Source: a virus
Reading direction: 5' to 3' (one strand)
IMG/VR virus record: IMGVR_UViG_3300025288_000012
Location: 32,001-96,000 of that record
Length of the DNA stretch: 64,000 nt
The translations under genes and the position numbers were made by a program. Below the pieces are notes generated by a model. The model ran no database searches. It saw nothing but the letters and a program-made list of their open reading frames with translations, and had not been told where the DNA came from. Below are positions 1,912 to 62,359 of this stretch, one piece after another. How positions within the stretch are numbered: the stretch's first letter is position 1; each line of letters starts with the position of its first letter.

Positions 1912-4900
1912 TTAAATTCTTTGAGTGGTCTTAAGGTCGGCAAGCTCTTGTTTGAGCTCCGCGAAGTTTGTCACTACGACACCTTCAGCTCGCATGGAAC
2001 GCACGAATGAGACCAGCTCTGACCTAGCGTTGAAGAACTTGATGTTAAGGCCAGATGCTTCGGCAAACTTCAGGCTCCTTGTACCAGGAATGACTTTGTT
2101 CAGGTGTCTCTTGATTGAAGGGTTGGTAGCAATGTCAACTGTCAACATAAGGCTGCCGTTAAGTATGACCGGGTAGATCTTAAGCTCAGGCCTGCCCTTT
2201 GCATCCTTGCCGCTAAGTTTGTGACGTAGCAGGTAGAAGTTTTTGAACTCTGCAACTGGCGCGAGCTCGACTGCAAATTTCCGGCCTTTTCCGCTCTGAA
2301 ACGAATCCTGCAGAGACTCCAGGCGTCTAAAGATCGGAGTGCTTATGGAGAACTTCGCATCCAGGTAGTCAAGTAAGGCTTCAAAGGATTTTTGGTCCTT
2401 CACTATGGTGTAGGCATAGTCACCAAACTGCTTGAACCCATACGACTTAATGTCAAACTCCGGGTCTTCAGGGCTACCTTCAAGTGCAAGGAATCCATTG
2501 TAGACTACGGGGAACAGCTCAATGTTGAGATTCTGTTCTTCCTCGTCTTCTTCAGGCTCTGGTTTAGGCGCACGTTTCTTCTTACCGAGACCAAGAATGG
2601 TCTTGGCAGCCGCAGCCGCAGCCTTCTTAGCTTCCCTGGCTTCTTGACGCTCCAAGGCTTTACGCGCACGTTCTGCCAGAGCCTTGTCACGTTTGGTAGC
2701 GAGCTTCGTAGTTGGGCCAAAGTCCTTGACGTTATCCTTGGTCACGTTAGTGGCAAGGAAGATCATCGTGGCTGCACCACTGTACGTGTCGCCGTTTGCC
2801 AGCTGCACATCAACCCTAGTGATACGCCGAGCAGCTTCCAGCTCGTTGTCACTTATGCCTTCGACCTTAGGAGGCCGAGATAGGCCAACGCGGCTTATAA
2901 CACCGTTACCGAACTCGGTGTGGACGTAAGAGCCGATAAGGTTCTTACGATCCTTGAGGATAGCCTGAACCGCTGGGTCTTCAGTATCTTGAAGGTACTC
3001 ATTTAGACGCAGCAGACCGAAGTCATGGCGATCCGGAACCTCCAAGTTCGGAACGTAAGGTACCTGCTCAAGTATGCGAGCTTCCTTGAACATAGGTGTA
3101 GGAGGTACGTCCAACATAGTTGACGGACCAGATTGGCGCATGTCCTCAAATTCGGCAGCCTGAATGTGGACCAAGTTTGCGTATGCCTCGATGTACTCCT
3201 GAATGTCAGAAATAACCGGAACACTTGCGATGGTGTCCAAGTTCATACGGATCAAAGGAAGCTGCTGCTCTGCAATTGCTGCATACAAAGGGTTTCCAGC
3301 TTCGTCGAACTGCGTCTTAATGAGCATCTTAGAAATCAGACGCCCCATCTTCGCAACTTCTAGGCTACCGTTGCAGATAATCCAGTCGAGGTACACATTC
3401 TCCCGAGAGAACTTCTTGGAAGGATCAGGACGGAAAATACGCGAGGACGATTGGTCCAACTCACCAGGTGACCAGGGTGACTCCATACGAATGATGCGGC
3501 TAGCACAGTTGTGCACCAAAACGGGGATAAGCGTATTGTGTCTATCGTTTGACCCAGCACAAGCAAAGAAGTTGTGGTTACCCTTTACGTTAAGGTCGTA
3601 CTTGTAATCTCCAATAAGCTTCTTGGATTTTCCAAATGTTATTGATGTTACGGTAAGGTAGTGGTTGTTGATGAAAGACTCAAGGCGGGCACGAGTATCG
3701 GCCAAAGTAGCCTCATGGTAGCACGAATCTGCATCTACAATCAGGCATTCGATACCAACTTTAGCATAAGCCTTTATCAACTCTCGGTCATACTTCTTGT
3801 CCCTGTAAGCACGAGCCCCAATTACTTCAACAACCTTGTAAGTTCTGCCTTTAGAGTTCAAGTGATTTAGGGATACGAAATCTGGGTTTTTGTTTACGGT
3901 ACGACCACCCATTGTTAACGTTACCCAATAATCACCGTCACCCGTGTACGCAAGTCCCTTTATACCAAGATCAATAACATTACTCTCTGGGATGTTTAGT
4001 AATGTACCTTGAGCCAGCAACATAGCGCCTACGCCAGCCTCAGTGTACCCTGGGATGTTAGCATGGCACCATGCAGTTGCAGCGCTCTTGCGTTGCCTTG
4101 CTTCGGGTGTAGAAAGGGCTGCCTGTAGCCGTGCGCTGTGTAGATCTCTCATGCCGGGCTTTGCCCAGTGTTTCCGTAGAGATTTTGAGATCTTGCGTTT
4201 AACCTCGGGTCGGGCATTAACTTCTGTGCGAGTGGCTGACATCTGTTCTTGAGCGTCGAGATCTTCATAATAACGAGTAAGCTTTTCCTCTATAGAGGAA
4301 CGACCTTCCGGAGAAGAATAAAACTTCTTCAACGACTTTGAAAGAGTTTCTGGGCAGGAGTTGAAGGGTGAGAACTTTCCGCCATACGTTATGAGTTGAT
4401 CACCAACTTTCAGGTCTCGTGCCTCAATCTCGGAGCCATCCTTAAGGAAGACCGGGTGTTCTTCAGTTAGAAGTAACGGACTAGCCTCACCTGTACGGTT
4501 ATCCTCAACTCTTACGTTAAGGTACACATCCTTTGGTTTAACTTTGTGCCGTAGCTTACCATATATCTTACGTTTCTCTATCTTGCGGGTCTCAAGGTTG
4601 TAAGAAAGTACATGGGTAATCTCAGGATTGGCATAGATTTCACCAATAGACATTGACTTTCGGTAGTCAATCATTACCTGAGTTTGAGCAGGGAAGCACT
4701 GAAGGTTGTGGCCCTCGGAGATGGATTGCTCGTTGGCGATTAAAATTTGCGGGTCCTTCGTAAGGCTGAAAGGTGATGTCTTGAATCGGTCAAACCCTTC
4801 CATCTTGTTCTTGACTTCGCCGTGGAACTTGATTGCTATCTTCTTCAAGTCAGGTGGAAGTGCCTTGTACACCGCATTAACGGTACGAGTGTAACGGCAG

Positions 4901-7900
4901 AACACAATGACTTTACCTTGGGGCTCGGGCTTCCAACGTGGATCCTTGGCCGGGTCGATGTGAGATTCGTACTCTAACTCGTAGTCGTCGAGCGTCAACA
5001 CTTTTCCTGGGACACCCATGAGTACATAACGCTCACCGTTAGAGTCAGCGAGATCTTTCAGCTTGTACTTCTTGCCTTTAACCCAAGGATACTTGTCGAA
5101 GTTCCTACGAATACGCTCTATGCACTTCTGCACTTTGTTGCTAACGAAGTTGTCTTTCGCCATACCACCGAAGTACACTTCACCGAAGGGGTCACCTACA
5201 GGATCGGTAAGTAGCTGCTCAAGGCGGGCCAAGTACGGCTCCAGCTTAGACTCAAGGTCTGCGAGTGTAGCGTCATCCAGATCGTTGTCTGTAGGCAACA
5301 CCTGCGGTGCACCATCGTCATCCTCGTCGTCATCATCTTCAGAATGGCCTTGCAGAAGTGCCATTACATCCTTATCCTGCTTGATCTCCTCCAGAGTTTC
5401 CTTAAGGATAGCGTCGTACATCATCTGGTGAACAAGTCCACCTTCAGCGTCGGACTTCTCCATACGAACAGGAATGAAGGTCTCAATAGGACGGGGTAAC
5501 ATGAACGCCCATTCCTTACGCTTGGCAGTAATGACAGCCGCATGTTTTGAAAGCTGTGCTCTTGCAAGTTCAGGAGTGTTGGGCTTCCAGGTCATGACCT
5601 GGAACGTGCCGAGCTGTTCACTATTCTCTGCCTCGTACTCTTCAGCAGTACGGAAAATCTGAGCATTGAACAACGCAGCCTGACCAACAACGTCAGTCAA
5701 ACGGTCCTTAATCAAGGTACCTGTTGCAAGACGCACGTACTTTACGGTGCTAGCTACCATCACCTGACGCAAAGCCTTGTGCACGCCCGAGTTAACGTTC
5801 TTACCACGATGGGATTCGTCAAGCGCAATGTACTCGAATCCGAACTTACGGGCGAACTCAAGAACAGCAGACACGCTCTCAACGTGGTTACCAATAACGA
5901 TTGGATACTTGTCAAGTTTAAGCACTGACGTACTCATAACGATGATGGTGTTGCGCGGAGCTTCCTTAATGAGCTTCGTCAAACGCTCGTCACCCCAAGT
6001 ACGGTACACAGCAGTAGTGATTGGGATTACGTTCCACTTGCCTTCAGTGACCTTATGAAGGTCTTCCACCCAGTTACGGACCAGTCCATTAGGTGCAAAG
6101 ATGCAAGGCGGACCTTTGATAAGGCCCTTGCCGACGATTCCTGCTGCATCTGCCAGAAGCAAAATGGTGTTATGCCCATAAACACCTCCCACGGAATAAG
6201 AGTGAGGGCCAGGGACACTAAGGTCGTAAACATCCTCAGGTGAATCCTCCTTAGAAGACTTTACAAACACCCAGTACTTGGAGAGTAGTGTATTCAGGGT
6301 CTCAAGAATACACTTGACCCTTGGGCTCTTCAGCAATTGACTCCTTATCATCGGTTCAAGCGCTTCTATAGCTCGTACCAGGCGAATTACTGAATAACGG
6401 TTAGTCGCTCCGTGTGGGTATTTAGCGGGCGCTAAGTTCCGGCCCATGCCACTATCTCGAAGTAGCTTTTGAACAGACCAGGTCTCAGTCCGACCACCAC
6501 TGCCCCGCGTATTAGTTGGTACGTCGTACTCAAATTGAGCTAAAGTATCCTCAAGGTGCCCTACAAGTTCGCAGGTAAGGGCATGAGCTGGAAGCTTATT
6601 CCACTTACCACCAACCTCCATATTGGTAGTTTGCTTGGCCTCATAGCTGGACCAGTTCGTTTTTGCGGCTGCACTTTGCAGTTTACTATGTTTCTCTTCA
6701 CTTAAGAAGCCAATGCACTCTGCAAACTTTGGGATGTCTTTCCAGTCTACACCGAGAGTGTGAACTCGCTTGGGGTGGTCATGGTTATTGGAGTAGTACT
6801 TGTCACCTATGCCCATTGTAACAGGTATGCCCATGTTCTCCATCATTAACTTGACCTGCGTGGCGAGCGCGGCACTTATGGTACTGTACTGTATACGCCA
6901 GATTCTTCTCTGGTTAGCCCCAGTGCTACCGTGCCATATTGAGCCGTCACCCTCCCACAGTGATCTAAGGAATGCAATTTGGTACCGTTTAGGGGCAGCG
7001 CGTATACAACGAGGAACCTCCTTGAAGGAGGACGTGCCCAACACTAGCTCACGCCTGAGAAACTCAATTACGTCGGTGAAACTTCTAGCTACACCAACAC
7101 TTGTTCTACGGCTATCTATCTGGTGATAGGAACCAGGACCGAATACAGACTCGAACTTCGCTATGTAGCGTTCGCGATTTGCTGTATGGTGTTGCTCAAA
7201 GCTTATGGTTTCGGCATCAGCAGGTGTGTAGCCCTCTGCTACCAACCATCCGAACACCTCGGCCATGTCCTCTGAAAGTTTAATAGACCGATTGCCAAGT
7301 GCTAGAGTAGGAGTTCTAGTTGCATAAACTTCGTCACCTATGGCCTTAGAAATCCACATGCCCTTTCTTAAGTCATTAAGCTGAATAAACTCTTCATCAA
7401 GCGACCCACTTTCAAGTGCCCACAATTTATGTTCGGGCAGGCCTTGTATAGAGGAACCGTCTGAAAGCACGACCTTGCGAGTTCTCCCAGCTGACTTGAA
7501 TGCTTTAGTTGCTTGGACTACCGTTCTTTCATGTGATACTACCTCTACTTGATCTAAGCTCTGGAAACCGTTTCTTAGTGAATTTGGGTCGGACTGATCC
7601 CACAACTCTGAAAGCTTCAAGAGTCCACTTGTGGTTGGTACTAAATGGTCACCGGTAAGGCACTTGCCACCACCTGGGGCGACGTCCAGTACTGCGTAAC
7701 GAGGATGGTTCTGAAGGTATTGGTGCACCTTCAATTGGTGCGGGAATACCTGAAAGCCGCTCTTTGAACCAGGCATCACAATGTCGCTAGCAGTGATACT
7801 CTGATTACGCTGATTGGATTCCTCCAGTTCGTTTGCCTTTTCTATAATGGTGCTACTGTTAACTGTGTACTTGCCCAGTATAACGATTGCAGGCATTACT

Positions 7901-29270: not shown

Positions 29271-30269
29271 ATGTGTTTACAGTGTTCTAGGGGAACTAAA
29301 GTGTTCGGTCCAAAGAAGTTAGTGTATACTACAGGCACTGATATACGCGATGTGCTGAAAGAGTTTGACACTGAGTACAGGTCAGCAGTACAGGAACAGT
29401 ACCCAGACATAGTCGTACGGGAGGACAAACTACGGGTGTCCTCCTTCCCCTACTGCGGATTGCGCCACATGTACCGCAGACTAGTGCAGGAAGAAGCCGT
29501 TACAAACTTCGGGGCAGCCTTCTACACAGGTGTGGGTACAGTAACACACGAAGCCATACAACGATGGCTAGGTCATTCAAAGAGGATGCTGGGAAACTGG
29601 AAGTGCAGTTCCGCAAAGTGCAAGGGTAAGAGAGAGTTCTCGTTCAGGAATGTCTGCCCTAAGTGTGGATCAGAAATGCTGTACGAGGAGTTTGAAGTAG
29701 AAGCCTTGAAGCACCTATCGGGGCACCTAGACGGCATCTATAAGGCACGTAATGGGAAATTCTATCTCATAGACTACAAGACTAGCTCAGTTAGAGTGAT
29801 AGGCTCTAACTGGAAGACTAAGATGTTGCCCTACAAGTACAACGTGTTTCAGATAACGGCGTATGCGGCTCTGATAGAACAAGTGTATGACATTGAGATC
29901 AGTGGGTGGATACTTTACTACCTATCTCGGGATAGCCCACTCTACGTTAGTAAGGCTACGGGTGCAAACATAAGTAGTAAGGAGAAACGAGACTATTTGA
30001 GGCGCATGGAAGTATGGGCTGACCACTATGAGCACGTAATGGTCAGAACGAAGAAACTCAGTGACTTGAGCTTCTTAGTGGAGAACAAACCTTGCAAGTG
30101 CATGAAGGACTACAACGAAACCTACAAGGCGTACGATATATGTCCTCTGGCTAAGAACGGTGTGTGCTTCGATAGTGAGAAGCTGAGCACAAAGCTAAAA
30201 GCACTATGGATAGCCAAGCCTGATAACTGGCAGACGTTTAACGCGCCCAAATACTTGGAAAAACTGTAA
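29271..30269 (+). CDS. Cas4-like PD-(D/E)xK exonuclease
   Basis: PYCGLR..GHLDG..LIDYKT..QITAYA plus terminal Cys cluster (CKC..C..C). Confidence 0.75.
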   Translation: MCLQCSRGTKVFGPKKLVYTTGTDIRDVLKEFDTEYRSAVQEQYPDIVVREDKLRVSSFPYCGLRHMYRRLVQEEAVTNFGAAFYTGVGTVTHEAIQRWLGHSKRMLGNWKCSSAKCKGKREFSFRNVCPKCGSEMLYEEFEVEALKHLSGHLDGIYKARNGKFYLIDYKTSSVRVIGSNWKTKMLPYKYNVFQITAYAALIEQVYDIEISGWILYYLSRDSPLYVSKATGANISSKEKRDYLRRMEVWADHYEHVMVRTKKLSDLSFLVENKPCKCMKDYNETYKAYDICPLAKNGVCFDSEKLSTKLKALWIAKPDNWQTFNAPKYLEKL

Positions 30270-30312
30270 AGAAAATGCAGACAATTGCTGGCAAGAGCTA
30301 GGGTATAGACAA

Positions 30313-31746
30313 ATGAAACACAAATACACCACACCGAAAAGTCCTAAAAAAGGTTACGCGTTTGTAGCTGCGGGTACACTGTACCGGAATGCAGGTGGCA
30401 TAAGCGTGTATGTGAAGTACGGTAGTAATGATCCACACAAGATTTCAGTCAAGCAAATGACTGACGAGTACGTGTGGTTCGTGTGTCCCGACCGAGAGCT
30501 GGTCATAGTTCGAGACGGTCAAACGTTAGGCGCGTTCTACCCGTATGGAGATTCGTTCGATGAATGCTACGACTTCAGTCCGTTCAATGACCGTGCAGCC
30601 AAAGGTATGGGTCTGAAGTACATAATGACCAACTTTGTTCATAGTCCTAACTCAAAGAACTGCAGGTTGAAGTCTGAAATCCCTGAAGAGCATCGAATGA
30701 CTGTATTGTCCGATAGCGGTGGACTTCAGCTAGTAGCCCGTAAGGATAAATCTCTAGTGATTGACCCCAGAGACCTTATAACGTTCTACAACAACAACGT
30801 TGACGCGGGCATGGTACTGGACATACCACTTGCAATTGCAGACCGAAAGACTACAATGAGGGCTGCTCGACTTCAGAAAAGGAATAACGAGCTGCTCCTG
30901 AAAATGTCCAAGGGCGTGGAACTGATAAACATATTCCACGGTCACAACGATGAAGAGCGAGCGAAGTACAGAGAGATTGTTGAGAACGAGGCAATACCTA
31001 GAGTTGCATTGGGTGGAGTAGCGTTCAACTCTTTAATGTCTGGTGTAGACCTGATATACTCGTCTATCAATGGTGATCTACGATACAAACAGTACCATGT
31101 GCTGGGTGTATTCCTTGCTGCCCATTTGCCCTTGCTCGTTAAGATAGCAAACACAGGTGAGAATCCAGTTCACATAACGAGTGACAGCACAAGCCATATT
31201 CAAAGTGCGGTCAACAAGGCGTACCACTTCCAGTTCGACATTAACACTACGTCCAAGCGCCTTCCTATAGGTGCCAGATCTACAGTGCCGAACAGCAACA
31301 GGCTGTTACCGTGTCAGTGTGCAGTGTGCAAAGTTATAAAGTACACAGACATACTAGGGTTTGGTGATGGAAGGCACACTACTGAACTTCTTGCGCTCCA
31401 CAATGCACTTGAAATGACCAGGTACACGGATCAGCTTCAGGAAGCTTGTGAGACTTTGCCCAGCAAAGAGTACAACAAACTGGTACGTGAGCAGCTAGGT
31501 AAGAACCCAGCAATAGTTGAATTCACCCATTGTCTGGAGTTCATTGAAATCGCAGCTGAAAACCACGCCAAGGCACGAACAAAGTACGCTGCGATGATTA
31601 ACAAGAGAAAGGCGTCTAAGACAGCGCTTGCACCAAGCAACAGTTTGTTTGGCGATGCGACGCCCGACCTATATGCAAAGAGGCAAGAGCACGTGCTAAC
31701 CTTGATGGGCAAGATGGAACGTATGCTGGACAACCTCGGAGGATGA
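30313..31746 (+). CDS. TGT-fold guanine transglycosylase, DpdA-like
   Basis: SDSGGLQ, MVLD, FHG, ALGG, HVLG, SDSTS and the zinc site CQCAVC..HN in TGT order. Confidence 0.8.
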   Translation: MKHKYTTPKSPKKGYAFVAAGTLYRNAGGISVYVKYGSNDPHKISVKQMTDEYVWFVCPDRELVIVRDGQTLGAFYPYGDSFDECYDFSPFNDRAAKGMGLKYIMTNFVHSPNSKNCRLKSEIPEEHRMTVLSDSGGLQLVARKDKSLVIDPRDLITFYNNNVDAGMVLDIPLAIADRKTTMRAARLQKRNNELLLKMSKGVELINIFHGHNDEERAKYREIVENEAIPRVALGGVAFNSLMSGVDLIYSSINGDLRYKQYHVLGVFLAAHLPLLVKIANTGENPVHITSDSTSHIQSAVNKAYHFQFDINTTSKRLPIGARSTVPNSNRLLPCQCAVCKVIKYTDILGFGDGRHTTELLALHNALEMTRYTDQLQEACETLPSKEYNKLVREQLGKNPAIVEFTHCLEFIEIAAENHAKARTKYAAMINKRKASKTALAPSNSLFGDATPDLYAKRQEHVLTLMGKMERMLDNLGG

Positions 31747-31747
31747 C

Positions 31748-32179
31748 ATGATAGCATTTGATCTCGATGGAGTACTGCAGCCTGATTTGCGATACACGAA
31801 AAACTTCAACCTGGTAGAGGTTAACTCCGTAAGGAATCTAATGATTCCCTTGTACCAACCCAAAGGAAAATGGTGTATCATAACTTCAAGGTCGATGGAG
31901 GATGCAGACGAGATAGCACGGTGGATTGACAAGTCATTTGAAGTTAAACCTGCGCTTGTAGTTCAGTCTTGCAGAGAAGGTGAGATTAGCAGCGTGTACA
32001 AGGCACGCATGTTGGACAGGTACACGAACATAACTGCCTATATTGAGAGTGACCATGAAACTGCTTTGGACATAAAGGCAAACATGGTTCGCAGAGATTG
32101 TGCTATACTGTCATTGACCAATCTATTGGATAGAGCACTTAGCGAATCCATGATTCTCACAACTATATTCGCGGTGTAA
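31748..32179 (+). CDS. HAD-superfamily hydrolase
   Basis: N-terminal FDLDGV, ITSR, YK, YIES. Confidence 0.7.
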   Translation: MIAFDLDGVLQPDLRYTKNFNLVEVNSVRNLMIPLYQPKGKWCIITSRSMEDADEIARWIDKSFEVKPALVVQSCREGEISSVYKARMLDRYTNITAYIESDHETALDIKANMVRRDCAILSLTNLLDRALSESMILTTIFAV

Positions 32180-32182
32180 GCT

Positions 32183-32677
32183 ATGAAAAAATTTCTTGTT
32201 GACTACGCGACCTTCCTTTCGGGTACACGCTCTTTGGCATCTACGTTGGGTAACGTTGGCCTCGTGCTTACGTTGCCTCGAGGTGGTATGTCCTTCGCAC
32301 ACATACTCAGTCTAGAGTGTGGATGTGCCTGCAAAATGCTGGACTTGGATATAAAGAACATCGACCTAGAAAGCTACATCGAGCGTGCTGTTGAAAACAA
32401 AGGGCACATAGTAATAGCTGACGATTCCATAGGGACGGGAGCTACTTACGAACGAATCAAACGGTTGATGGAGTTAATGCCTGTAACTTGGGTGTACGCA
32501 GTGTTCTACGTAGACGGTGCGTTCAACTCCGAAGACAAAGAGATCAAGTACGTCATGAAGACAAATCAATGGGTTGTACTTCCGTATGAGGACCCTGAAC
32601 TGATCGAAGTTGGAAATCAGAATAGCCTGTTTCGCAACGGAACTGATCCGTACCAAGCCACTCGAAGGAAAGGGTAA
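32183..32677 (+). CDS. Type I phosphoribosyltransferase (purine PRTase-like)
   Basis: LPRGG loop, PRPP motif IVIADDSIGTGAT, WVVLPYE. Confidence 0.8.
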   Translation: MKKFLVDYATFLSGTRSLASTLGNVGLVLTLPRGGMSFAHILSLECGCACKMLDLDIKNIDLESYIERAVENKGHIVIADDSIGTGATYERIKRLMELMPVTWVYAVFYVDGAFNSEDKEIKYVMKTNQWVVLPYEDPELIEVGNQNSLFRNGTDPYQATRRKG

Positions 32678-32682
32678 GTAGT

Positions 32683-33609
32683 ATGACTATAACTACCTGT
32701 GTAAGCTGCGGTGGCCGAACAGAGACTCTTCAGTTAGTGCATTGCGATGACTTGGAAGACTTGTGGAAGAGAGAACTTGATCTAGATGTGACATTTGACT
32801 TGCAGTTGCTAAGGCTGCACAAGTGTACACAGTGCGATCTAGTGCAGTACTCTCCGATGGAAAGAGCTATAGGTGACTCCGAGTTCTACGACAAGCTGAC
32901 GTTGAAGACAAAGGATTTCATCTACCCTAAGTACAAAGAAGAATTCAGGGTTATAGGGAAGCTTATAGGTAGAGGTGCGTCGGTATTGGATGTAGGGTGC
33001 GGTAGTGGTGCACTATGGTATCACCTGGATGATGATGTTTCCTACACCGGCATAGACTACAGTGCGGTATCGTGTCAACTTGATCCAGGTGTTGACGGTA
33101 AGATACTGTGCGAATCTCTGAAAGAGCACAGTGAAAACAATGTAAGGCAGTACACTGACGTAGTCATGTCCCAGGTGCTCGAACACGTGGATGACCCCAT
33201 TGGGTTTGTGAGGTGTGCACTCAATACACTTAAAGTTGGTGGAAGCCTGTATATAACTGTACCCAACGGTGATTCTTACTTGAAGTACTTGGTAAACGGT
33301 GCACTAAATTTGCCACCGCACCACGTGTCAATGTGGAATGAGAAGTCTTTGGACACGTTGGCAGAAGGCTTAGGTTTGACTAAAGCCTTTGTGTTTAGGG
33401 AGACACTTCAGGATGTTCATGAGATTGACTTCATGGAAGCATTCCTATACTCCTTTGGATTTTTACGAGAGCCAAAAGAAGCAGTTCGTTGGTCTTTATG
33501 GGCAAGAACTGTAAAAAAATATGCTAGGTATCTAACGTGGCTAATCCCCAATACCAATAGTCAAGTAACGGGCCATTCCATCACCATCCAGTACAGGAAA
33601 ACAACATGA
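32683..33609 (+). CDS. Class I SAM-dependent methyltransferase with N-terminal Zn ribbon
   Basis: CVSC..CTQC; VLDVGCGSG; SQVLEHV; LKVGGSLYITVPN; PPHH. Confidence 0.85.
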   Translation: MTITTCVSCGGRTETLQLVHCDDLEDLWKRELDLDVTFDLQLLRLHKCTQCDLVQYSPMERAIGDSEFYDKLTLKTKDFIYPKYKEEFRVIGKLIGRGASVLDVGCGSGALWYHLDDDVSYTGIDYSAVSCQLDPGVDGKILCESLKEHSENNVRQYTDVVMSQVLEHVDDPIGFVRCALNTLKVGGSLYITVPNGDSYLKYLVNGALNLPPHHVSMWNEKSLDTLAEGLGLTKAFVFRETLQDVHEIDFMEAFLYSFGFLREPKEAVRWSLWARTVKKYARYLTWLIPNTNSQVTGHSITIQYRKTT

Positions 33610-48391: not shown

Positions 48392-51300
48392 ATGTTATTC
48401 ACTACTTCGGGAATGGGCATGAACATAGGACTACAAGAAGCTTCATTTGACATTTGGGATACCAAATATCGGCTGCGTGACTCGGAAGGCAATCCAGTAG
48501 ACAAAGACCTAGAAGCCTCGCGCAGGCGTGTCGCTACTGCCTTAGCTGAAGCGGAGCCAGCCGAGATGCGAGCTAGTTACGAGAAACTCTACTATGACGC
48601 TCTGGAGTATGCTATCCCTGCTGGGCGCATCTACTCCAATGCTGGTGCATCGGATCATAAAAGAGCCGTGTCTCTAATCAACTGCACGGTCAGTGATACC
48701 ATCCAGGATTCGATGGACAGCATCCTGATGAAGCTATACGAATCTGGTCTTACGCTACGGGCAGGGTGCGGTATAGGATATGAGTTCAGTACTTTGCGCC
48801 CGAAAGGCAGTTTCGTTTTCGGTGCGGGTGCTGTAACATCAGGCCCGTTGTCCTTCATGGACGTATATGACAAGACGTGCTTCACTATTTCTTCAGCAGG
48901 TGGTCGTCGTGGTGCTCAGATGGCCACCTTCGACATTTCACATCCTGACGTACTTGAGTTCATACGGGCAAAGCGTGAGGATGGCCGTCTGCGTCAGTTC
49001 AACCTATCAGTGTTGGTTACTGACGAATTCATCCACGCCGTCAAGAATGATTTGACCTGGGTGTTTAAGTGGGATGGAAAGCCGTATGGAAATCCCATTC
49101 CGGCTAAAGAGTTGTGGGACATCATTATGAAGTCCACCTACAACTTCGCTGAGCCTGGCTTCCTCCTTGTAGACCGTATTAACCATTACAACAACCTTTG
49201 GTTCTGCGAGAACCTTCGTGCTACGAATCCTTGTGTCACAGGGGATACCTTAGTTGCAGTAGCAGGGCGTGGTCCAGTACCTATTAAGCAACTTGCTGAA
49301 GAAGGTGTAGATATACCCGTATACGGGTATGACTTTGAAACAGGAAAAACCGTAGTCAAGTACGGGCGAAACCCACGTCGAACCGGAATAGGACATAAGG
49401 TTTATCGCGTAACACTTGATGACGGTTCCTCTTTCAAAGGTAATGCTAAGCACAAAGTTCCACTACGCGATGGGTCAATAGTGGGGATTGAGGACTTAGT
49501 GGGTGGGGAAAGTCTCGTACCTTTCGTCCTAAAGGACGACCGTTATGGCACATTTGTTCAAACTACGGACGGCTATAGCAAAGACTACCAACTCCTGCTG
49601 AACTGCAAGTATTATGGCACGGATCTGGATTTTGGTACAGGTGTAGGTAAAATCCATAGTCACCACGTAGATGGTGACCACTTCAATAACGACATGGACA
49701 ATCTAGAAGCTATGTACCATGAGGAGCATACGTCCCATCATCTTACAGAAGCAAATTACGGCGTAGTCAGTCAAGGACGTGTTCAACCTCTCAAGGTTCG
49801 TAAGACAAAACACTCTAAAACCACACGTAGGTTAATCGGACTTAAGACGCTTGCTCGATTTTCTAATAACCCAGCTTTTAAAGCTAATCATCGCGCGGCC
49901 GTAGCTGAGGCAATGCAAAAACCTGAGACACGTGCTTTACTGTCAAAGGTTAAAACTAAAGATCGCCAAGTATTGAGCTGCGTGTGTGAGGGGTGTGAAA
50001 CACCTTTTAATCTTACCGTAATTGTAGGACGGACTAGCCCACAACGCTTCTGTAGTCAATCGTGTGCTGCTGCGCACAACTCAGCTATAGCTGCGAATAC
50101 ACCTCGTACCCAAGAGACGTTAGACGCAATATCAAAGGGGTCCAAAGCATTTGCAGCTACTCGAAAAGGGCGTAAGTCTAAACGTGCTGCTGGTTCTGCC
50201 TCTATTGTGCAGAGTTCCTTGAAATGTGGCTCGATGATGCTTCATCTTGGACATAAAATCTCAGCACGTACTTGGGACTCCTTGAAGTACGTTCTTCATG
50301 AGGCTGGGATCAAACCAACTATCGGTGCTGCCTGGATTGATAATCAGTGGGATGGTGACTGGAAAGCCTTCACTAAGGAGTGCAAGGCCTATAATCACAA
50401 GGTAGTAAGCATTGAGTACGTAGGGCGAGAAGACGTTTACAATCTAACTGTGGACGATGTACACAATTACTGCATAGTGACAAAGTCTTGGAAGGATAAG
50501 GGTATCACATACTGGACAGGTGTGCTGCAAAAAAATTGCGGTGAGCAACCGCTTCCCCCTTACGGGGCGTGCTTGTTGGGTTCCCTCAACCTGACCAAAT
50601 TCGTACTCAATCCGTTCACTTCAGCTGCTACCTTCGACTTTTCAAAGTATGAGGAGATCATCAAGATCTTTACCCGTATGCTGGACAACGTCGTAGAAAG
50701 TAATGGTCTTCCCTTGATCCAACAGCGTCATGAGATCGAGTCCAAGCGTCGTCACGGAATGGGTTTCTTGGGTCTCGGTTCTACCTTGACTATGCTAGGT
50801 ATGACCTATGGCAGTCCAGAGTCAGTAGCCTTCACCTCTGAGGTCACGAAATGTTTGGCCATGACCAGCTTTGATGCTGGTGTTGACCTGGCTATCGAAA
50901 AAGGTGAAGCCCCTATTCTGCAACAAGAGTTCAATTCGGTTGAGCTTCAAAATTCTCCCAATGGTCGTTTCAATACCAACATGCGGTACGCGAACGAGAC
51001 CTACACTGGTCGTCAGCTTTTGCTTCAAAGCCATTACTTCGATGCGTGGCGGAGCGACGAGAGAGGGTCAGCAATTCTCAAGCGTATCAAGAAACACGGC
51101 TGTCGGTTTACCCATGCTACGTCTTTGGCACCTACAGGCTGTTGCCTGTCCTCAACTAAAATAATAACTGATGCTGGAATAAAGTCTTATCAGTCTATTA
51201 TGGAGGAGAACGGTATTGACTGGAAGTCTATAGAAAAAACAAACGAAAAGCAATGGCTACCACTCAAGCCTTTCACCTTACCGTCACTTGATAACTATGC

Positions 51301-51478
51301 TGACAGCAGTGATAAAATTTGGTACAATGGTTACGAAGAAATTTACGAAATTGTATTTGAAGATGGCTCTATCTTTGAGTGTACTCCCATTCATAAACTT
51401 TTTGTACGAATTGGTAAACATATCGTAGAAGTTGAAGCACAATACTTGAAAGGAGACGAAGATATTGTGTCCTACTAA
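48392..51478 (+). CDS. nrdJ: Class II ribonucleotide reductase NrdJa, N-terminal fragment, with a contiguous intein and the N-half of a split intein
   Basis: PAGRI, SLINC, GCGIG, GGRRGAQM, ATNP|..|CGEQPL, GACLLGS, HATSLAPTG|C. Likely start MNIGLQ near 48419. Confidence 0.92.
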   Translation: MLFTTSGMGMNIGLQEASFDIWDTKYRLRDSEGNPVDKDLEASRRRVATALAEAEPAEMRASYEKLYYDALEYAIPAGRIYSNAGASDHKRAVSLINCTVSDTIQDSMDSILMKLYESGLTLRAGCGIGYEFSTLRPKGSFVFGAGAVTSGPLSFMDVYDKTCFTISSAGGRRGAQMATFDISHPDVLEFIRAKREDGRLRQFNLSVLVTDEFIHAVKNDLTWVFKWDGKPYGNPIPAKELWDIIMKSTYNFAEPGFLLVDRINHYNNLWFCENLRATNPCVTGDTLVAVAGRGPVPIKQLAEEGVDIPVYGYDFETGKTVVKYGRNPRRTGIGHKVYRVTLDDGSSFKGNAKHKVPLRDGSIVGIEDLVGGESLVPFVLKDDRYGTFVQTTDGYSKDYQLLLNCKYYGTDLDFGTGVGKIHSHHVDGDHFNNDMDNLEAMYHEEHTSHHLTEANYGVVSQGRVQPLKVRKTKHSKTTRRLIGLKTLARFSNNPAFKANHRAAVAEAMQKPETRALLSKVKTKDRQVLSCVCEGCETPFNLTVIVGRTSPQRFCSQSCAAAHNSAIAANTPRTQETLDAISKGSKAFAATRKGRKSKRAAGSASIVQSSLKCGSMMLHLGHKISARTWDSLKYVLHEAGIKPTIGAAWIDNQWDGDWKAFTKECKAYNHKVVSIEYVGREDVYNLTVDDVHNYCIVTKSWKDKGITYWTGVLQKNCGEQPLPPYGACLLGSLNLTKFVLNPFTSAATFDFSKYEEIIKIFTRMLDNVVESNGLPLIQQRHEIESKRRHGMGFLGLGSTLTMLGMTYGSPESVAFTSEVTKCLAMTSFDAGVDLAIEKGEAPILQQEFNSVELQNSPNGRFNTNMRYANETYTGRQLLLQSHYFDAWRSDERGSAILKRIKKHGCRFTHATSLAPTGCCLSSTKIITDAGIKSYQSIMEENGIDWKSIEKTNEKQWLPLKPFTLPSLDNYADSSDKIWYNGYEEIYEIVFEDGSIFECTPIHKLFVRIGKHIVEVEAQYLKGDEDIVSY
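49232..50536 (+). mobile_element. NrdJ intein (435 aa) at the NP|CGE site with HNH nuclease, ends KN
   Basis: NP|CVTGDTLV..HSHHVDGDHFNNDMDNL..VYNLTVDDVHNY..VLQKN|CGEQ. Confidence 0.9.
51140..51478 (+). mobile_element. Split intein N-half (112 aa) on NrdJa-N
   Basis: APTG|CCLSSTKII..FEDGSIFECTPIHKL..LKGDEDIVSY*. Confidence 0.9.
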
Positions 51479-51544
51479 GACTTAATCTGCTAGGTGCAAT
51501 CGAGCAATCATCACTGTAATTTAATGATGTTAAAATAGTGGAGA

Positions 51545-52858
51545 TTGCACCAGATGAAAAATCTACCAATAGACTGCATATTAGGTTGGTATTCCAAGTC
51601 GTTTAAGTGGTTTTCTGAGCATTCCACTTCGGAATTAAAGAGAGAACTAGTTGCACTACCTAAGTCGCAATTAAGAATTTTATACGGAACTCCAGCTGGG
51701 TATGACAACTCAATGTTTTCTAAGGTACCAGAATACGTTTTGCGAAACGGTCTTTTATACGCAAAAAAATTTAACGATAGACATGCAGCATTCAAGTACA
51801 TTAAGTATACTCTTGAGTTGGATACTTTAGACCATTTGATTCCCGGTCAGTTTGGTATATTTCTTGAGCTTTTATTGAAGCGGGGCGTTACATTGCAGCC
51901 TAAGACTAGGGAGTACGCGGTTGCAAAATACGGAGAAGCGTTAGGTCCATATTATCGTACAAAGGTTTTAGCTAAGGCAAACCCATACAGCGTAGAGGCC
52001 GTTATGACTAGGAACGGTCTATGCAAGTCTGATGCCTTAAAAGTAATAGAAGAGCGCAAGAAAGCAACTTCAGGATCTTTAGAAACTTTTGTAAAACGCT
52101 ACGGTGCAAAGGAAGGAAGTCGAAGGCACAAACTTTTCGGGCAACGCTCCTCACATACTAAAGAGAAATTTAAAGAGAAATACGGCAAAAGGTGGGCAAA
52201 GAAATGGAGATCTTATAGAAGATCGAAGGATAGCTCTTCATTAGAATTCTGGATAACGAAATTGGGTCCAGAACTCGGTCCTGCAGCGTACAAAAAGAAA
52301 ATTTTAGCCTGTACGTTTAACTACGAGGAGTGCTTGCTAAAATTTGACGGTGATGAAAAGAATGCAAGCAAATTCTACAGAGACTACTGTTTACGAAAAA
52401 CAAGACATTGGAGAGGTGCTGGTAATGGAGGTGCTCTAACAAAAGAATCTAAAAAGTTTTTCAATCCTATACTTGACTATTTGGATGAAATAGGAATTGA
52501 CTATATAATAGGTGACTCACGTGGTGGTAAAGAATACTACATCTGGGATAATTTTCAGAAGAAAATTAGGTATTATGACTTCTGCATTCCTGATATCAAA
52601 TACATAATAGAGTTTGATGGTGGTACACATCCTAGTCCTTTGCTCTCAAAAAATGAGCTTAGAACTTGGCGGTGTTTTTTAAGTGGTGTTTCAGCACAAA
52701 CCCGATTAGAAGATGACAATAGAAAAGAATACTTAGCAGTTAGAAAGGGATTCACCTTTAGCCGCATACACGTGGACGAGTTTAGGGCCGATCCACATAT
52801 GCAAATTAAAAAGCATTTGAACCAAATAACTAAACTTCTTAAAAAGGAAAGACCGTGA
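51545..52858 (+). CDS. Free-standing Vsr/DUF559-like homing endonuclease between the split-intein halves
   Basis: YYDFCIP..IIEFDGG.HP..DDNRK..AVRKGF..RIH; N-terminal SLExFxxxYG-type repeats; A-rich. Confidence 0.8.
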   Translation: MHQMKNLPIDCILGWYSKSFKWFSEHSTSELKRELVALPKSQLRILYGTPAGYDNSMFSKVPEYVLRNGLLYAKKFNDRHAAFKYIKYTLELDTLDHLIPGQFGIFLELLLKRGVTLQPKTREYAVAKYGEALGPYYRTKVLAKANPYSVEAVMTRNGLCKSDALKVIEERKKATSGSLETFVKRYGAKEGSRRHKLFGQRSSHTKEKFKEKYGKRWAKKWRSYRRSKDSSSLEFWITKLGPELGPAAYKKKILACTFNYEECLLKFDGDEKNASKFYRDYCLRKTRHWRGAGNGGALTKESKKFFNPILDYLDEIGIDYIIGDSRGGKEYYIWDNFQKKIRYYDFCIPDIKYIIEFDGGTHPSPLLSKNELRTWRCFLSGVSAQTRLEDDNRKEYLAVRKGFTFSRIHVDEFRADPHMQIKKHLNQITKLLKKERP

Positions 52859-53595
52859 AGATATCGTCAGTGCGAAAAACAGGTTTTAAGAAACCTACCT
52901 GGGATATTGAGGTAAGAGAAAAACACTGCTATCAACTTTCTAATGGAGTTTTGTCTCATAACACAATCGCTTTGTCACTGGGCGACAACTGCTCAAATGG
53001 TATCGAGCCGAGTTACTCACACAGCTACGTGCGCAACGTTATCCGCGAAGGCCGCAATGCCAAGGAAGCAGTTATGGTGTACTCTCACGAGTTCCGAGTG
53101 TACAAGCACCTAGTTGAGAACGAAGGCTTGCCCCATACTATTACACCTGAGCAGAAAGCTCAAATGATTGAGCAGGACCTAGATCCAAATGTGCCGCATC
53201 CTCGGTTCATGCCAGAGTGTTTCAGTACAACTGATACCATAGATCCTGAGCACCACATTGATATTCAAGCTGCTGCCCAAACGTGGATTGATAGCTCTAT
53301 CTCTAAGACTATCAATGTACCTACGGACTTTCCCTTCGAGAAGTTCTCAGACATCTATCTCAAGGCGTATGACGCTGGACTTAAAGGCTGTACTACGTTC
53401 CGGTTCAATCCAGAGGCGTTCAGTGGAGTCCTTGTGAAAGAGGAAGACCTGAAGAACACAAACTACACGTTCGTCCTTCAATCAGGTGAGGAGAGAACAT
53501 ACAGTGGAAATACTCTTATTGAGTATGAAGGTCAGACACAGACTGCCGCAAATCTGTTCGACGCTGTTAAAGAAAACTACTTCGGAAAGCACTGA
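52855..53595 (+). CDS. nrdJ: Split intein C-half (36 aa, 52855-52962) fused to the NrdJa C-terminal fragment
   Basis: MKISSVRKTG..TWDIEV..LSNGVLSHN|TIALSLG..SNGIEP..QTWIDSSISKTIN..LKGCTTFR. Confidence 0.92.
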   Translation: MKISSVRKTGFKKPTWDIEVREKHCYQLSNGVLSHNTIALSLGDNCSNGIEPSYSHSYVRNVIREGRNAKEAVMVYSHEFRVYKHLVENEGLPHTITPEQKAQMIEQDLDPNVPHPRFMPECFSTTDTIDPEHHIDIQAAAQTWIDSSISKTINVPTDFPFEKFSDIYLKAYDAGLKGCTTFRFNPEAFSGVLVKEEDLKNTNYTFVLQSGEERTYSGNTLIEYEGQTQTAANLFDAVKENYFGKH

Positions 53596-59171: not shown

Positions 59172-60134
59172 ATGAAATTGACCAACGGTGACTACATCGT
59201 ATTGGACTTGGCCCGGTCGCACTTGGCCAAGGTCGTAAGTGCAGAGAAGCCATATCAGGCTATCTTGGAAAAGGATCGTGAAGGCGAGTTCCAAAAACTC
59301 AGCCCTATCGAGTTCAAAATGTCTGAAGTTCTTGCCAACTTGGGTCGATCACCCAAGGCTGGTTCCGTGCACGGTGTGAAGGTTGAGCCTTTGTTCCGCA
59401 CCGAAGAATCAAAGTTCTTCGGTGTAGTTCGAATCTATCAGGACATGAACGACGAACGCTACTCTGCGTTCCGTAAGTACATGGTTGCGTTTGTTAAGAC
59501 CATCAAACAGAAGCGACTTGATGGTGCTAAGATGGAACTCGAGGTAAGACCTGTGTCTGGAAAGTACGCTGGATACTACAAACACCGTCCTAAGCAGGAC
59601 GCAGACATCCTGTGTGTACGTCCCAATGAAGTACTAGATGGTCTGCAGTATGTATTTGCCCATGAGTACGGTCACAGTATTCACAACCGTATGATGCCTC
59701 GTAATATCTGGCTTCGTTGGATCAAACAGTACCACAACCACATCTCTATCACTGCCGTTGACGACGCTGAGTTGGTACAGATACGGGAAGAGATCGAAGG
59801 CGTACGATCAGTCGCTGAGTACCTTCGTGACTGCACCGACGATACCAAGCCTGTTATCCGTGCCTGTCTGAAGTACATATCCCAAGTGCATGGACTAAGC
59901 AAGCACCACATCGAAGCTATGCTTGGGTCAGACGAATCGTTGGAAAACATCTGGCCCTCTGCTATTGAACTGTCTGACAAGGACATGGTTATAAGCGAGT
60001 ATGCTGAAAAGTCTCCCGAGGAGTTTTTTGCTGAATGCTTCGCCTTCCATTTCCTGGGTCGCATATTACCTAAAGCCCTAGTGTCTTTGATGGAAAAGAC
60101 CCTGTCAAACTTAGTACACCCGAAAGGCAATTGA
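59172..60134 (+). CDS. Protein with C-terminal zincin-like HExxH domain
   Basis: FAHEYGH and distal SEYA..SPEEFFAE. Confidence 0.65.
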   Translation: MKLTNGDYIVLDLARSHLAKVVSAEKPYQAILEKDREGEFQKLSPIEFKMSEVLANLGRSPKAGSVHGVKVEPLFRTEESKFFGVVRIYQDMNDERYSAFRKYMVAFVKTIKQKRLDGAKMELEVRPVSGKYAGYYKHRPKQDADILCVRPNEVLDGLQYVFAHEYGHSIHNRMMPRNIWLRWIKQYHNHISITAVDDAELVQIREEIEGVRSVAEYLRDCTDDTKPVIRACLKYISQVHGLSKHHIEAMLGSDESLENIWPSAIELSDKDMVISEYAEKSPEEFFAECFAFHFLGRILPKALVSLMEKTLSNLVHPKGN

Positions 60135-60135
60135 C

Positions 60136-60657
60136 GTGGGTAGTGCAACCTTGCTTGCGGCCTCTCAAATTCAGGAGCTGAAGGGCTTCCTTGGTCTTGT
60201 CGTAAGCAAAATTGACAGACCTATCTTCGTAGTACCTAACAAAGAAGTCATGCTGACGGCTTTACGAACTGTGCAGCTTTCTCTCACTAGCGTCTGTAGC
60301 GTCTGCATACTTTCACTTGAAACGCGAGGGTCTGAGCTAGAGTCGTACCTAGATGAAGAAAGTTGTAACTCCTTGCGAACTCGCCTAGACTACGTAACTC
60401 AAAGCTTAGACTTCTTCAAGCAACGTTCCCCTGTTGCGTTGTTCCGCACACACGGCGTACCAGGTGGAAGTGAAATAGGTGCACTACTGGACATGTGCAG
60501 TCACACATGCTTCTCGGTTCAGGCCTTACTTAAGGCAGACTCGTTAGCTGCAACCTACTTTTCTTCTCTTGCCTCACTACTTTACGAAATTGCTCGATAC
60601 TTGAATGCCTCAGTTGGGCAACGTGAGCTAGAGTACACTGTAAAAATGAGTCTCTAG
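60136..60657 (+). CDS. Degenerate PduO-type cob(I)alamin adenosyltransferase-like protein
   Basis: VPGGSEIGALL..TC..TYFSSLASLLYEIARYLN..G..E parallels the PduO PGG..AA.LH.ARTV..YLNRLSD.LF..AR pattern. Confidence 0.5.
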   Translation: MGSATLLAASQIQELKGFLGLVVSKIDRPIFVVPNKEVMLTALRTVQLSLTSVCSVCILSLETRGSELESYLDEESCNSLRTRLDYVTQSLDFFKQRSPVALFRTHGVPGGSEIGALLDMCSHTCFSVQALLKADSLAATYFSSLASLLYEIARYLNASVGQRELEYTVKMSL

Positions 60658-60671
60658 CACGGATTACGAAA

Positions 60672-61418
60672 ATGACCACAACTCGAACAACTCGGAAAGT
60701 ATCTAGCACTTCATCCAAACCTAAGATGAAGATCGAATCGCTTGCAGTGAAGTACCGTCCTAAAGTATTGGAGGACTTGGTAGGACAGCCACACCTAGTC
60801 TCACAGCTTCGCGGCATGTTCAAGGCTGGCAAAATACCAAGTGCAATCCTTCTGGCAGGCGAATCAGGTACGGGCAAGACGACTACTGCTCGTATGATTG
60901 CACGTTATCTGAACTGCAATAACCCTGATCCAGCAACACATGCACCTTGCGGTGAGTGCATAAGCTGCAAATACGGTGATGGTCACCCTGACTTCCTTGA
61001 AATGAACATGGCCGATGCCCGAGGCATTGACGACATTCGCGGCCTTATTGCCTCGTCCAAGAACATGCCTGTCATGGGTGAGAACCGCATATTTCTTCTG
61101 GACGAGTGCTTCCCCCCAGATACAGAGATTGAGGTAGAGCCCGGTAAGTTTAGAACTATCAGCGATATATGCTCAGACCCTCAAGACGTAAACGTGCTTT
61201 CGTTTAATCATGAAACTGGTGAAGTTGAGAGTAAACAAGTTGAAGCGAAGCTCCCAAAACCATCTGATGACCGAGAAATGGTTGAAGTCATTCTAGCGGA
61301 TGGCTCTGTCCAACCTTGCACTTCAAATCATAAATGGTGGAGTGTAACACGGGGCATGATGGTAGAGGCCAAGGATCTTATGCCCGAAGAGGAGTTACTT
61401 GTCATTTACGAGTCATGA
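60672..61418 (+). CDS. dnaX: DnaX-like clamp loader N-fragment + split intein N-half (61107-61415, 103 aa)
   Basis: KYRP..DLVGQ, GESGTGKTT, C..C..C, RGIDDIR, FLLDE|CFPPDTEI..CTSNHKW..AKDLMPEEELL*. Confidence 0.92.
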   Translation: MTTTRTTRKVSSTSSKPKMKIESLAVKYRPKVLEDLVGQPHLVSQLRGMFKAGKIPSAILLAGESGTGKTTTARMIARYLNCNNPDPATHAPCGECISCKYGDGHPDFLEMNMADARGIDDIRGLIASSKNMPVMGENRIFLLDECFPPDTEIEVEPGKFRTISDICSDPQDVNVLSFNHETGEVESKQVEAKLPKPSDDREMVEVILADGSVQPCTSNHKWWSVTRGMMVEAKDLMPEEELLVIYES

Positions 61419-61480
61419 GTCCACTGAACAGTTTACCTTCTCGGTAGTGACTTTCTCAAACCCATTTAGGAACCTACACA

Positions 61481-62359
61481 ATGCGAGTCTCAACCATCAA
61501 GGTTTCGAGTGTACGCCACATCTCCATTGCGAGCAACCAGGTATTTGACTTAACAGTTAAAGACAACCATAACTTTTTCGTTCGCCCAAAAGGAGCAACT
61601 GGTTCTGTATTGGTTTCAAATTGTCACCAAATTACTCCCCAGGGAGCGCAGGCTCTTCTGAAACCTTTGGAAGAACCACCTGCGTCTACCTTGTGGATAT
61701 TGGCCACTACAAATCCTGAGAAGCTACCTCCTACTGTTCGCGGTAGATGCCATCAGTTTGAAGTGAAAGCCATAGCTCCTAACGAGCTCTCACGACGCTT
61801 GAGTCGCATTGCCCGTCTTGAGGGCATTGACACCAAGGCTATTGAGGACTGGTCAGGCATAACAAAGATCATTTCCGACCTTGCTAATGGCAGGATGCGT
61901 GACTCTATTCAGATGCTGGAGAGCGTGATCTTTGCACTCAACAGTGGAGAGGACGTTGATCCGCGTTCTGTAATCAAGACCTTCCTAAACTCTACTGAGG
62001 CTGAGCTTGACGAGAGTGCAGCCCGACTGTTGCTGGGCATAATTCAGGCAAACATGAAGGTGTGTCTGAAAGAGATTCGTGGGTGTGGTAATGCTCGTGG
62101 CTTGATGAACAAGCTGCGCTGGTTGATTGTTTACCTGACTGACAACTCGGTAGGGCTGGCTAAGTTCACCCCGTGGTCAGGCAAGGCATTTGCAAAGCTT
62201 GCACAGGGTACCGGAGTGCGGATAAACCTAGCCCTGCTGCTGAACCTCCAGTCGCTGTTGATAGAAATGGAATTCCGTTTCAACTCACTGAGCCTTGAGG
62301 AATCAATAGTCATGAGCGCTATGCTGGCTGACTTCATTACCAAGAGAAAGAACGAGTAG
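61481..62359 (+). CDS. dnaX: Split intein C-half (47 aa, 61481-61621) + DnaX C-fragment
   Basis: MRVSTIKV..VFDLTVKDNHNFF..VLVSN|CHQIT..QALLKPLEEPP..ILATT..TVRGRC..GRMRD. Confidence 0.92.
   Translation: MRVSTIKVSSVRHISIASNQVFDLTVKDNHNFFVRPKGATGSVLVSNCHQITPQGAQALLKPLEEPPASTLWILATTNPEKLPPTVRGRCHQFEVKAIAPNELSRRLSRIARLEGIDTKAIEDWSGITKIISDLANGRMRDSIQMLESVIFALNSGEDVDPRSVIKTFLNSTEAELDESAARLLLGIIQANMKVCLKEIRGCGNARGLMNKLRWLIVYLTDNSVGLAKFTPWSGKAFAKLAQGTGVRINLALLLNLQSLLIEMEFRFNSLSLEESIVMSAMLADFITKRKNE

Follow-up and report, generated by a model that had tools for sequence, protein, structure and literature searches.

A phage DnaX-like clamp loader interrupted at Walker B by a natural split intein of class 1

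The DNA analysed here, referred to as the window, is a stretch of 64,000 nucleotides (nt) from a virus (positions 32,001 to 96,000 of IMG/VR record IMGVR_UViG_3300025288_000012). The whole record comes from an uncultured phage, is 190,918 bp long, is estimated by CheckV to be 78% complete, and contains one dnaX gene only, which is in two pieces. These pieces are two open reading frames (ORFs), DnaX-N and DnaX-C, whose coordinates and internal features are collected in Table 1. The N-terminal part of DnaX-N (the N-extein) matches the Pfam family DNA_pol3_delta2 over positions 1-109 of 161 (E 3e-15) and the clamp loader family phrog_5846 (E 3e-35), the latter up to ...NRIFLLDE. The corresponding part of DnaX-C (the C-extein) matches positions 104-159 of DNA_pol3_delta2 (E 2e-12) and positions 99-360 of phrog_5846. 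A sequence-only reading of the locus had described DnaX-N as ending in LLDE/C (the slash marks the junction between extein and intein) followed by an acidic intein N-half (IntN) of 103 amino acids (aa) and a stop, then a 62-nt spacer with an AGGA ribosome-binding site and no endonuclease, and finally a gene in a different frame that starts with a basic 47-aa intein C-half (IntC), passes through VSN/C and restores DE-CH. All of this is present in the sequence. IntN stops after the EELL strand (...EELLVIYES), which is the canonical split or endonuclease-insertion point. The spacer contains no endonuclease ORF and no ORF at all, no terminator-like site, and no sigma-70-like site on the plus strand. 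Downstream of ...VLVSN, DnaX-C reads CHQITPQGAQALLKPLEEPP, and the DE-CH (DExH) motif is restored with Cys+1 and His. We conclude that a phage DnaX-like clamp loader is interrupted here, at the DE/CH point of Walker B, by a class-1 intein that is naturally split.

The assignment of the two halves draws on both sequence and structure comparisons. In a PDB search, IntN alone matches the solved NrdJ-1 split intein 8ubs (E 1e-3) and the intein domain 8w20. With the family profile (alignment A5), 44 intein/HINT chains were matched, at E values from 1e-20 to 6e-3; among them are NrdJ-1, the DnaE inteins of Npu and Ssp, gp41-1, and the Spl (Spirulina) DnaX mini-intein 7cfv (E 2e-10). A family profile built from IntC alone matches Npu DnaE IntC chains, 7cfv and gp41-1. 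The class-1 catalytic set is complete and conserved in the family, comprising Cys1, Thr72/His75, Asp23/His30, Asn47 and Cys+1. Cys1, which follows directly after LLDE and represents class-1 block A, is invariant across family members, and Asn47 and Cys+1 are invariant in the family alignment A7.

Both halves tile contiguous DnaX mini-inteins with every block covered. Contiguous mini-inteins at the same site are found in phage DnaX proteins P0121, P0122, P0124, L016 and L019 (L and P numbers are our handles for relatives) and in the 485-kb uncultured phage LR745208.1, and the segments equivalent to the end of IntN and to the start of IntC (...TIKVSSVR) adjoin in L019 and L016. An AF2 model of L016, which in alignment A5 is 43% and 38% identical to the window IntN and IntC, respectively, was used as a proxy for the HINT fold of the window intein. 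The model has a pLDDT of 92.6, and its sole weak segment is the loop where the window intein splits. A Foldseek search with this model returned RecA, NrdJ-1, DnaB and NpuDnaE inteins on top at a probability of 1.00. As modelled through this homologue, the window halves would form a HINT fold, and their net charges are opposite. No larger proteins carrying the window IntN were found by word-based search. Judged from sequence, it is highly likely that the halves associate and splice, making this a functional trans-splicing split intein.

Relatives of the locus were found in several allelic states. The sequence-only reading had proposed searching related phages for intact, contiguous-intein and endonuclease-bearing alleles, and all three were recovered (e.g., L007, L016 and L001, respectively). 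Intein-less alleles include L007, P0005 and many more. The two-gene architecture was found again in the independent assemblies L001-L006, L013 and L066-L068. In six of these, a gene on the strand opposite to dnaX lies between the halves (Table 1), and no intervening gene is present in the window, in L005 (90-nt spacer) or in L066 (4 nt). All six intervening proteins match the zinc-ribbon families DUF723/DUF4379, with the repeats at the N-terminus. PHROG scans, run on the proteins of L001, L004, L006 and L013, also gave matches to endonuclease PHROGs 559 and 681, and the Vsr-like motif VDG...FEFLGxxWH...VWExD is common to five of the six. The relatives' endonucleases were classed by these PHROG and Pfam matches together with the motif; a PDB sequence search with them gave no informative match. 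Decay is suggested by the L004 endonuclease, which is divided into two ORFs, and by the L001 copy, in which the distal motif is missing.

To place these alleles in a wider sample, metagenome clusters were scanned at the 50% identity level and the 150 best representative clusters considered. About 20 of them hold 212-252 aa proteins that match through IntN to their own C-terminus, which is the split form, and about 30 hold longer, contiguous-intein forms. The split DnaX arrangement is not rare in metagenomes. Among deposited phage genomes, 138 of 50,697 match the N-extein, and the intein is present in only one of these, in contiguous form, an unannotated 485-kb uncultured phage.

Other intein arrangements were seen in phage DnaX. 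L044 carries a contiguous 351-aa intein at DE/CH (L044:3508-4560), with a second-frame ORF in mid-intein (L044:3668-4507) encoding a 280-aa DUF559-type nuclease (Pfam E 5e-12). Downstream of Walker B, homologous inteins are inserted at three points that lie within about 12 residues. The middle point (DExHx/C..N/CT) is occupied in P0123, P0126 and L011, where only contiguous forms were seen, and the third (..AQQ/C..N/C-LLK) is occupied in P0125, P0007, P0008, L006, L067 and L068. Contiguous and split forms were both seen at the first (DE/CH) and third insertion points.

Table 1. Features of the split dnaX locus in the window and genes lying between the intein halves in relatives
Sequence	Feature	Position	Strand	Description
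Window	DnaX-N ORF	60672..61418	+	248 aa; DnaX residues 1-145 to ...NRIFLLDE, then 103-aa IntN; TGA stop 61416-61418
Window	DnaX N-extein	60672..61106	+	145 aa; P-loop GESGTGKT; Walker B IFLLDE
Window	IntN	61107..61415	+	103 aa; starts CFPPDTEIEVE; Cys1 61107-61109; net charge -13
Window	IntN block B	Thr72 61320-61322, His75 61329-61331	+	C-T72-S-N-H75; consensus CTxxH
Window	Stop and spacer	61416..61480	+	TGA, then 62-nt spacer 61419-61480
Window	AGGA	61468-61471		9 nt 5' of DnaX-C ATG (61481)
Window	DnaX-C ORF	61481..62359	+	292 aa; position mod 3 = 2, against 0 for DnaX-N (different frame)
Window	IntC	61481..61621	+	47 aa; 6 K/R, 2 D; net charge +4; begins ...TIKVSSVR
Window	IntC block F	Asp23 61547-61549, His30 61568-61570	+	VFDLTVKDNHNFFV; VFD23LTVKDNH30NFFV
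Window	IntC block G	Ser46 61616-61618, Asn47 61619-61621	+	VLVSN
Window	DnaX C-extein	61622..62359	+	245 aa and stop; Cys+1 61622-61624; Cys-His 61622-61627; sensor and lid domains beyond
L001	Gene between split halves	6784-7743	opposite to dnaX	319 aa
L004	Gene between split halves	5705-6933	opposite to dnaX	267 + 142 aa, two ORFs
L006	Gene between split halves	5735-7123	opposite to dnaX	462 aa
L013	Gene between split halves	3054-4469	opposite to dnaX	472 aa
L067	Gene between split halves	2878-3963	opposite to dnaX	361 aa
L068	Gene between split halves	4632-6347	opposite to dnaX	571 aa

A fractured-gene/split-intein model was published by Dassa, London, Stoddard, Schueler-Furman and Pietrokovski (Dassa et al. 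2009; PMC2677866). As in their loci, the break in a phage replication gene falls within an intein and consists of a stop, a short non-coding spacer and a new start, giving two separate ORFs (the host N-part and IntN with a stop, and IntC and the host C-part with a start); it lies at the canonical site between the N-terminal blocks and block F. Their IntN are 88-105 aa and their IntC 33-54 aa, against 103 and 47 aa in the window. Further likenesses are the opposite charges of the halves, the presence in relatives of a free-standing Vsr-like endonuclease gene between them, and the place of NrdJ-1 among the best solved matches of the window family. The window lacks the endonuclease gene that L001, L004, L006, L013, L067 and L068 retain, and in this it resembles gp41-7, the locus that represents 'step III' of the model, a split intein without an endonuclease gene (PMC2677866). 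It differs from the 2009 collection in that the eight fractured host enzymes described there exclude DnaX (PMC2677866). In addition, all 26 of those loci have their three genes on one strand, whereas all six endonuclease genes of the DnaX relatives are on the opposite strand and encode N-terminal DUF723/DUF4379 zinc-ribbon repeats. The window dnaX is thus a fractured gene of the 'step III' type, free of an endonuclease gene and located at an intein site already known, and its product is very probably assembled by trans-splicing.

The spacer provides a link to the endonuclease-bearing alleles. The whole window spacer aligns to a 57-nt segment of L001 that extends from the DnaX-N stop to the 3' end of the endonuclease gene (1 of 300 shuffles). 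Given this match, the L001 endonuclease gene is a clean indel of ~1 kb just upstream of the IntC start. The window spacer also resembles that of L005 (score attained in 0 of 300 shuffles), and the motif CGG[T/A]AGTG.CTTTC.CAAACCCA is conserved in both, with the flanking intein halves only ~50% identical at the protein level. No RNA structure was detected in the conserved spacer (z = +1.3; 4 weak consensus pairs only). A repeated promoter was considered as an explanation of the motif and rejected, as there is a single exact copy in the 64-kb window.

The sequence-only reading had placed the window at a late stage of the fractured-gene cycle, after endonuclease loss. The allele series and the spacer homology to endonuclease-bearing L001 bear out the stage, while the direction, by loss, is inferred. 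A free-standing Vsr-like homing endonuclease gene most likely lay immediately before the IntC start at one time and was lost later. Loss is the likelier history because the published model has the endonuclease later lost and because endonuclease decay is visible in relatives, and we consider endonuclease loss from a 'step III' fractured gene the probable origin of the window allele.

Several observations weigh against this account. At the level of the intein assignment, IntC matches Pfam Intein_splicing (positions 119-148) at E 0.004, which is under the curated cutoff. There is no recognisable endonuclease coding remnant in the 62-nt spacer. The closest extein relative, P0003, has no intein of any kind, and the extein tree has split alleles mixed among intein-less ones. 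A split allele that lacks an endonuclease gene might just as well be a target not yet invaded.

On the last of these points, the endonuclease-free split state would be a homing target still to be invaded, or the whole cassette would have been gained by recombination, and in neither case would it be a relic of loss. The maximum-likelihood extein tree joins the window (split) to intein-less P0003 as its sister, then to P0005 (intein-less), then to L001 (split with endonuclease), and it makes L004 (endonuclease) and L005 (none) sisters, as this origin would have it. The exteins of L004 and L005 are 89-91% identical, their IntN only 28% and IntC 44% identical, and DNA homology ends within ~10 nt of the intein borders. 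An intein replaced between near-identical exteins in this manner indicates that cassettes are exchanged horizontally as units. The clean indel directly upstream of the IntC ATG also fits a site open to invasion. Against such an origin, the published model has the invading endonuclease element itself bring the intein-breaking stop and start codons (PMC2677866), and the two-ORF L004 and truncated L001 endonucleases are moving visibly towards loss. We regard this origin as possible, if unlikely; with the alleles interleaved and the cassettes exchanged, these data do not tell which came first for the window, homing gain or precise loss.

Alongside endonuclease loss, which we continue to favor, we put forward more tentatively the rather doubtful proposal that the window intein is a mobile cassette without an endonuclease of its own. 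It would be spread by the endonucleases of co-infecting relatives acting in trans, and the replisome would need mutually orthogonal trans-splicing pairs. The proposal is based on the L004/L005 intein divergence, the three nearby insertion points, the conservation of the spacer above that of the flanking intein coding sequence, and the three split inteins of this phage described below, two of them paralogous (about 36% identity).

In the mechanism we propose, the two dnaX ORFs would probably be co-transcribed and separately translated, with AGGA serving DnaX-C. The acidic IntN and basic IntC would associate into one HINT domain, within which Cys1 would form a thioester, Cys+1 would attack, Asn47 would cyclise, and an S-to-N shift would follow. 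The predicted product is a 390-aa DnaX with the junction ...IFLLDE-CHQITPQ..., and the window cassette would represent a split allele of the intein lineage found at DE/CH, the site also occupied by contiguous mini-inteins of other phages and by an endonuclease-bearing intein of cyanobacterial DnaX. The junction peptide proposed earlier for mass spectrometry ends in K-P, a poor trypsin site.

The penultimate His of class-1 inteins, which is common but not obligatory, is absent from the window intein, where the residue is Ser46. This Ser-Asn terminus had been taken as an oddity, and that view did not hold. Of the 17 DnaX inteins of this family that were read, 10 have Ser in the penultimate position and 7 have His, and the Ser forms include six contiguous inteins (P0122, P0123, P0124, L011, L016 and L069). 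Penultimate Ser is ordinary for this intein lineage because it is the majority state and because the contiguous Ser inteins must splice to yield a working DnaX. Npu DnaE likewise ends in Ser-Asn. Penultimate His does help Asn cyclisation in many inteins (PMC4031507), and with Ser in its place splicing might be lost or very slow, so that the intein halves would serve to dock the DnaX pieces non-covalently. Aeh1 NrdA is a known case of a fragmented phage enzyme assembled without splicing (PMC3045599). We find this quite improbable for the window, where all nucleophiles and the assisting residues of blocks B and F are kept and where Ser is shared with contiguous inteins that would be useless without splicing. 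Moreover, inteins are documented to splice without a penultimate His, and Ssp DnaE, itself a natural split intein, is one of them (Chen 2000; Sun 2005; cited in PMC4031507). An unspliced complex would leave a HINT domain of ~150 aa wedged into the ATPase Walker B/sensor region.

The closest extein relative, L007/P0003, is an uninterrupted 395-aa DnaX with 94-95% aa but only ~82% DNA identity to the window exteins (94% aa for the N-extein and 95.5% for the C-extein). Against L007, the ratio of nonsynonymous to synonymous substitution (dN/dS) comes to 0.034 (N-extein) and 0.040 (C-extein), with dS about 0.9-1.6, and both exteins are under strong purifying selection. For the intein halves, compared between the window and L001, dS is saturated and the figure was not used. 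Over the insertion site, intein-less P0003/L007 reads exactly IFLLDECHQITPQGAQALLK, the junction predicted for spliced window DnaX. Among intein-less alleles, the closest ones have Cys at +1 as their native residue (DECH), and remoter ones have DEAH, DEVH or DEFH. No co-conversion tract was seen beside the insertion site between the window and L007, nor was there mismatch enrichment at the junction. There is a very slim chance that dnaX is a decaying pseudogene and that the phage uses the host clamp loader: the gene is interrupted and, with the record incomplete, a second dnaX copy is conceivable, yet the exteins are intact and constrained, the intein catalytic residues are all kept, and the split architecture is maintained in at least 20 metagenome protein clusters.

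The spacer contains stops in both gene frames, TGA/TGA/TAG in that of DnaX-N and TAG-TGA (61445-61450) in that of DnaX-C. A single indel or ribosomal frameshift therefore cannot fuse the two ORFs, and a DnaX-N/DnaX-C fusion by frameshifting or read-through was ruled out. The objection that the break might be an assembly indel, raised with the sequence-only reading, is answered by these stops and by the recurrence of the break in independent assemblies. Although the window derives from a metagenome contig, an assembly or sequencing artefact that breaks a contiguous mini-intein gene is scarcely conceivable, as fusion of the ORFs would take at least two frame changes and the removal of five stop codons, an identical copy of the 248-aa DnaX-N protein (P0001) is recorded in another assembly, and the break point recurs in independent assemblies whose spacers differ.

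The insertion point, after the Walker B DE and before Cys-His, coincides with site 'a' of the cyanobacterial DnaX inteins, known from Ssp DnaX and from the Spl mini-intein 7cfv. In BLASTP, [Limnothrix rosea] DnaX P0362 (VYVIDE/CLTGDT...LLVHN/CHMLS) aligns to both window junctions, and the cyanobacterial and window inteins share Cys1, Cys+1, and sequence similarity through blocks A and F/G. Unlike the window intein, those of cyanobacteria are contiguous and occur as mini-inteins or with an endonuclease domain; the split versions described are all engineered (PMC6486613, PMC3443213, PMC3620165). Novikova et al. (2016) reported a single PolIII gamma intein site, found only in cyanobacteria (PMC4760082), whereas the host of the window intein is a phage gene. 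The sequences closest to the window intein are phage DnaX inteins at the same site. Among solved structures the Spl DnaX intein is not the nearest relative, scoring below NrdJ-1, DnaE and a BIL domain with the family profile.

The natural split DnaE inteins of Ssp and Npu offer a second comparison. Like the window intein they have Cys1, Cys+1 and a block F of the form V[YF]D..V..[DN]HNF, and in them a replisome subunit is trans-spliced naturally, as is predicted for the window; Ssp DnaE also lacks a penultimate His (Sun et al. 2005, as cited in PMC4031507). They differ in host protein and in that their halves are far apart in the genome (Dassa step IV), against 62 nt in the window. The sequence-only reading knew of no characterised split DnaX intein, and our full-text literature search agrees, returning no naturally split DnaX or clamp-loader intein; the split Ssp DnaX inteins that it returned were all engineered.

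Protein ligation relies mainly on natural split inteins, of which few families have been characterised. The locus contributes one more pair, with Cys1 and Cys+1, halves of 103 and 47 aa, and strongly complementary charges, as a candidate ligation tool. The contiguous, split (with and without endonuclease) and intein-less alleles form an unusually complete set for the study of intein splitting and the homing cycle in large phages. DnaX inteins are extended from cyanobacteria to phages, and the fractured-gene concept of 2009 is unchanged.

Two further genes of this phage are split at inteins, giving three split inteins in one phage (PolA, NrdJ and DnaX). The family-A DNA polymerase (PolA) is divided by a 174-nt spacer and no endonuclease gene (L070:2394-5945). 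This locus lies at about 29893-33444 of G000:C1, and its IntN end overlaps positions 1-1444 of the window on the minus strand. The PolA and DnaX halves are paralogues, 36% identical in IntN and 35% in IntC, and have DGSV..T.NH.WSVTR and VFD..V..N.NFF in common. The PolA IntC is acidic (-3), which puts cross-reactivity versus orthogonality with the DnaX halves in question. At 48392-53595 of the window, a fractured nrdJ on the same strand comprises a 112-aa IntN, a gene for a 437-aa DUF559/Vsr-like endonuclease, and a 36-aa IntC ending SHN/T; its intein halves are 20-32% identical to the DnaX and PolA halves. The clamp loader of this phage, likewise its DNA polymerase and ribonucleotide reductase, would need post-translational assembly. 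Intein load is very high, with 18 Pfam Intein_splicing matches over the 190,918-bp record.

Two ORFs lie upstream of dnaX in the window. The first (59172-60134; 320 aa) contains a zincin-like HEYGH motif and matches Pfam ATLF below threshold (E 0.004), and the second (60136-60657) encodes 173 aa with a sub-threshold match to Cob_adeno_trans (E 1e-4).

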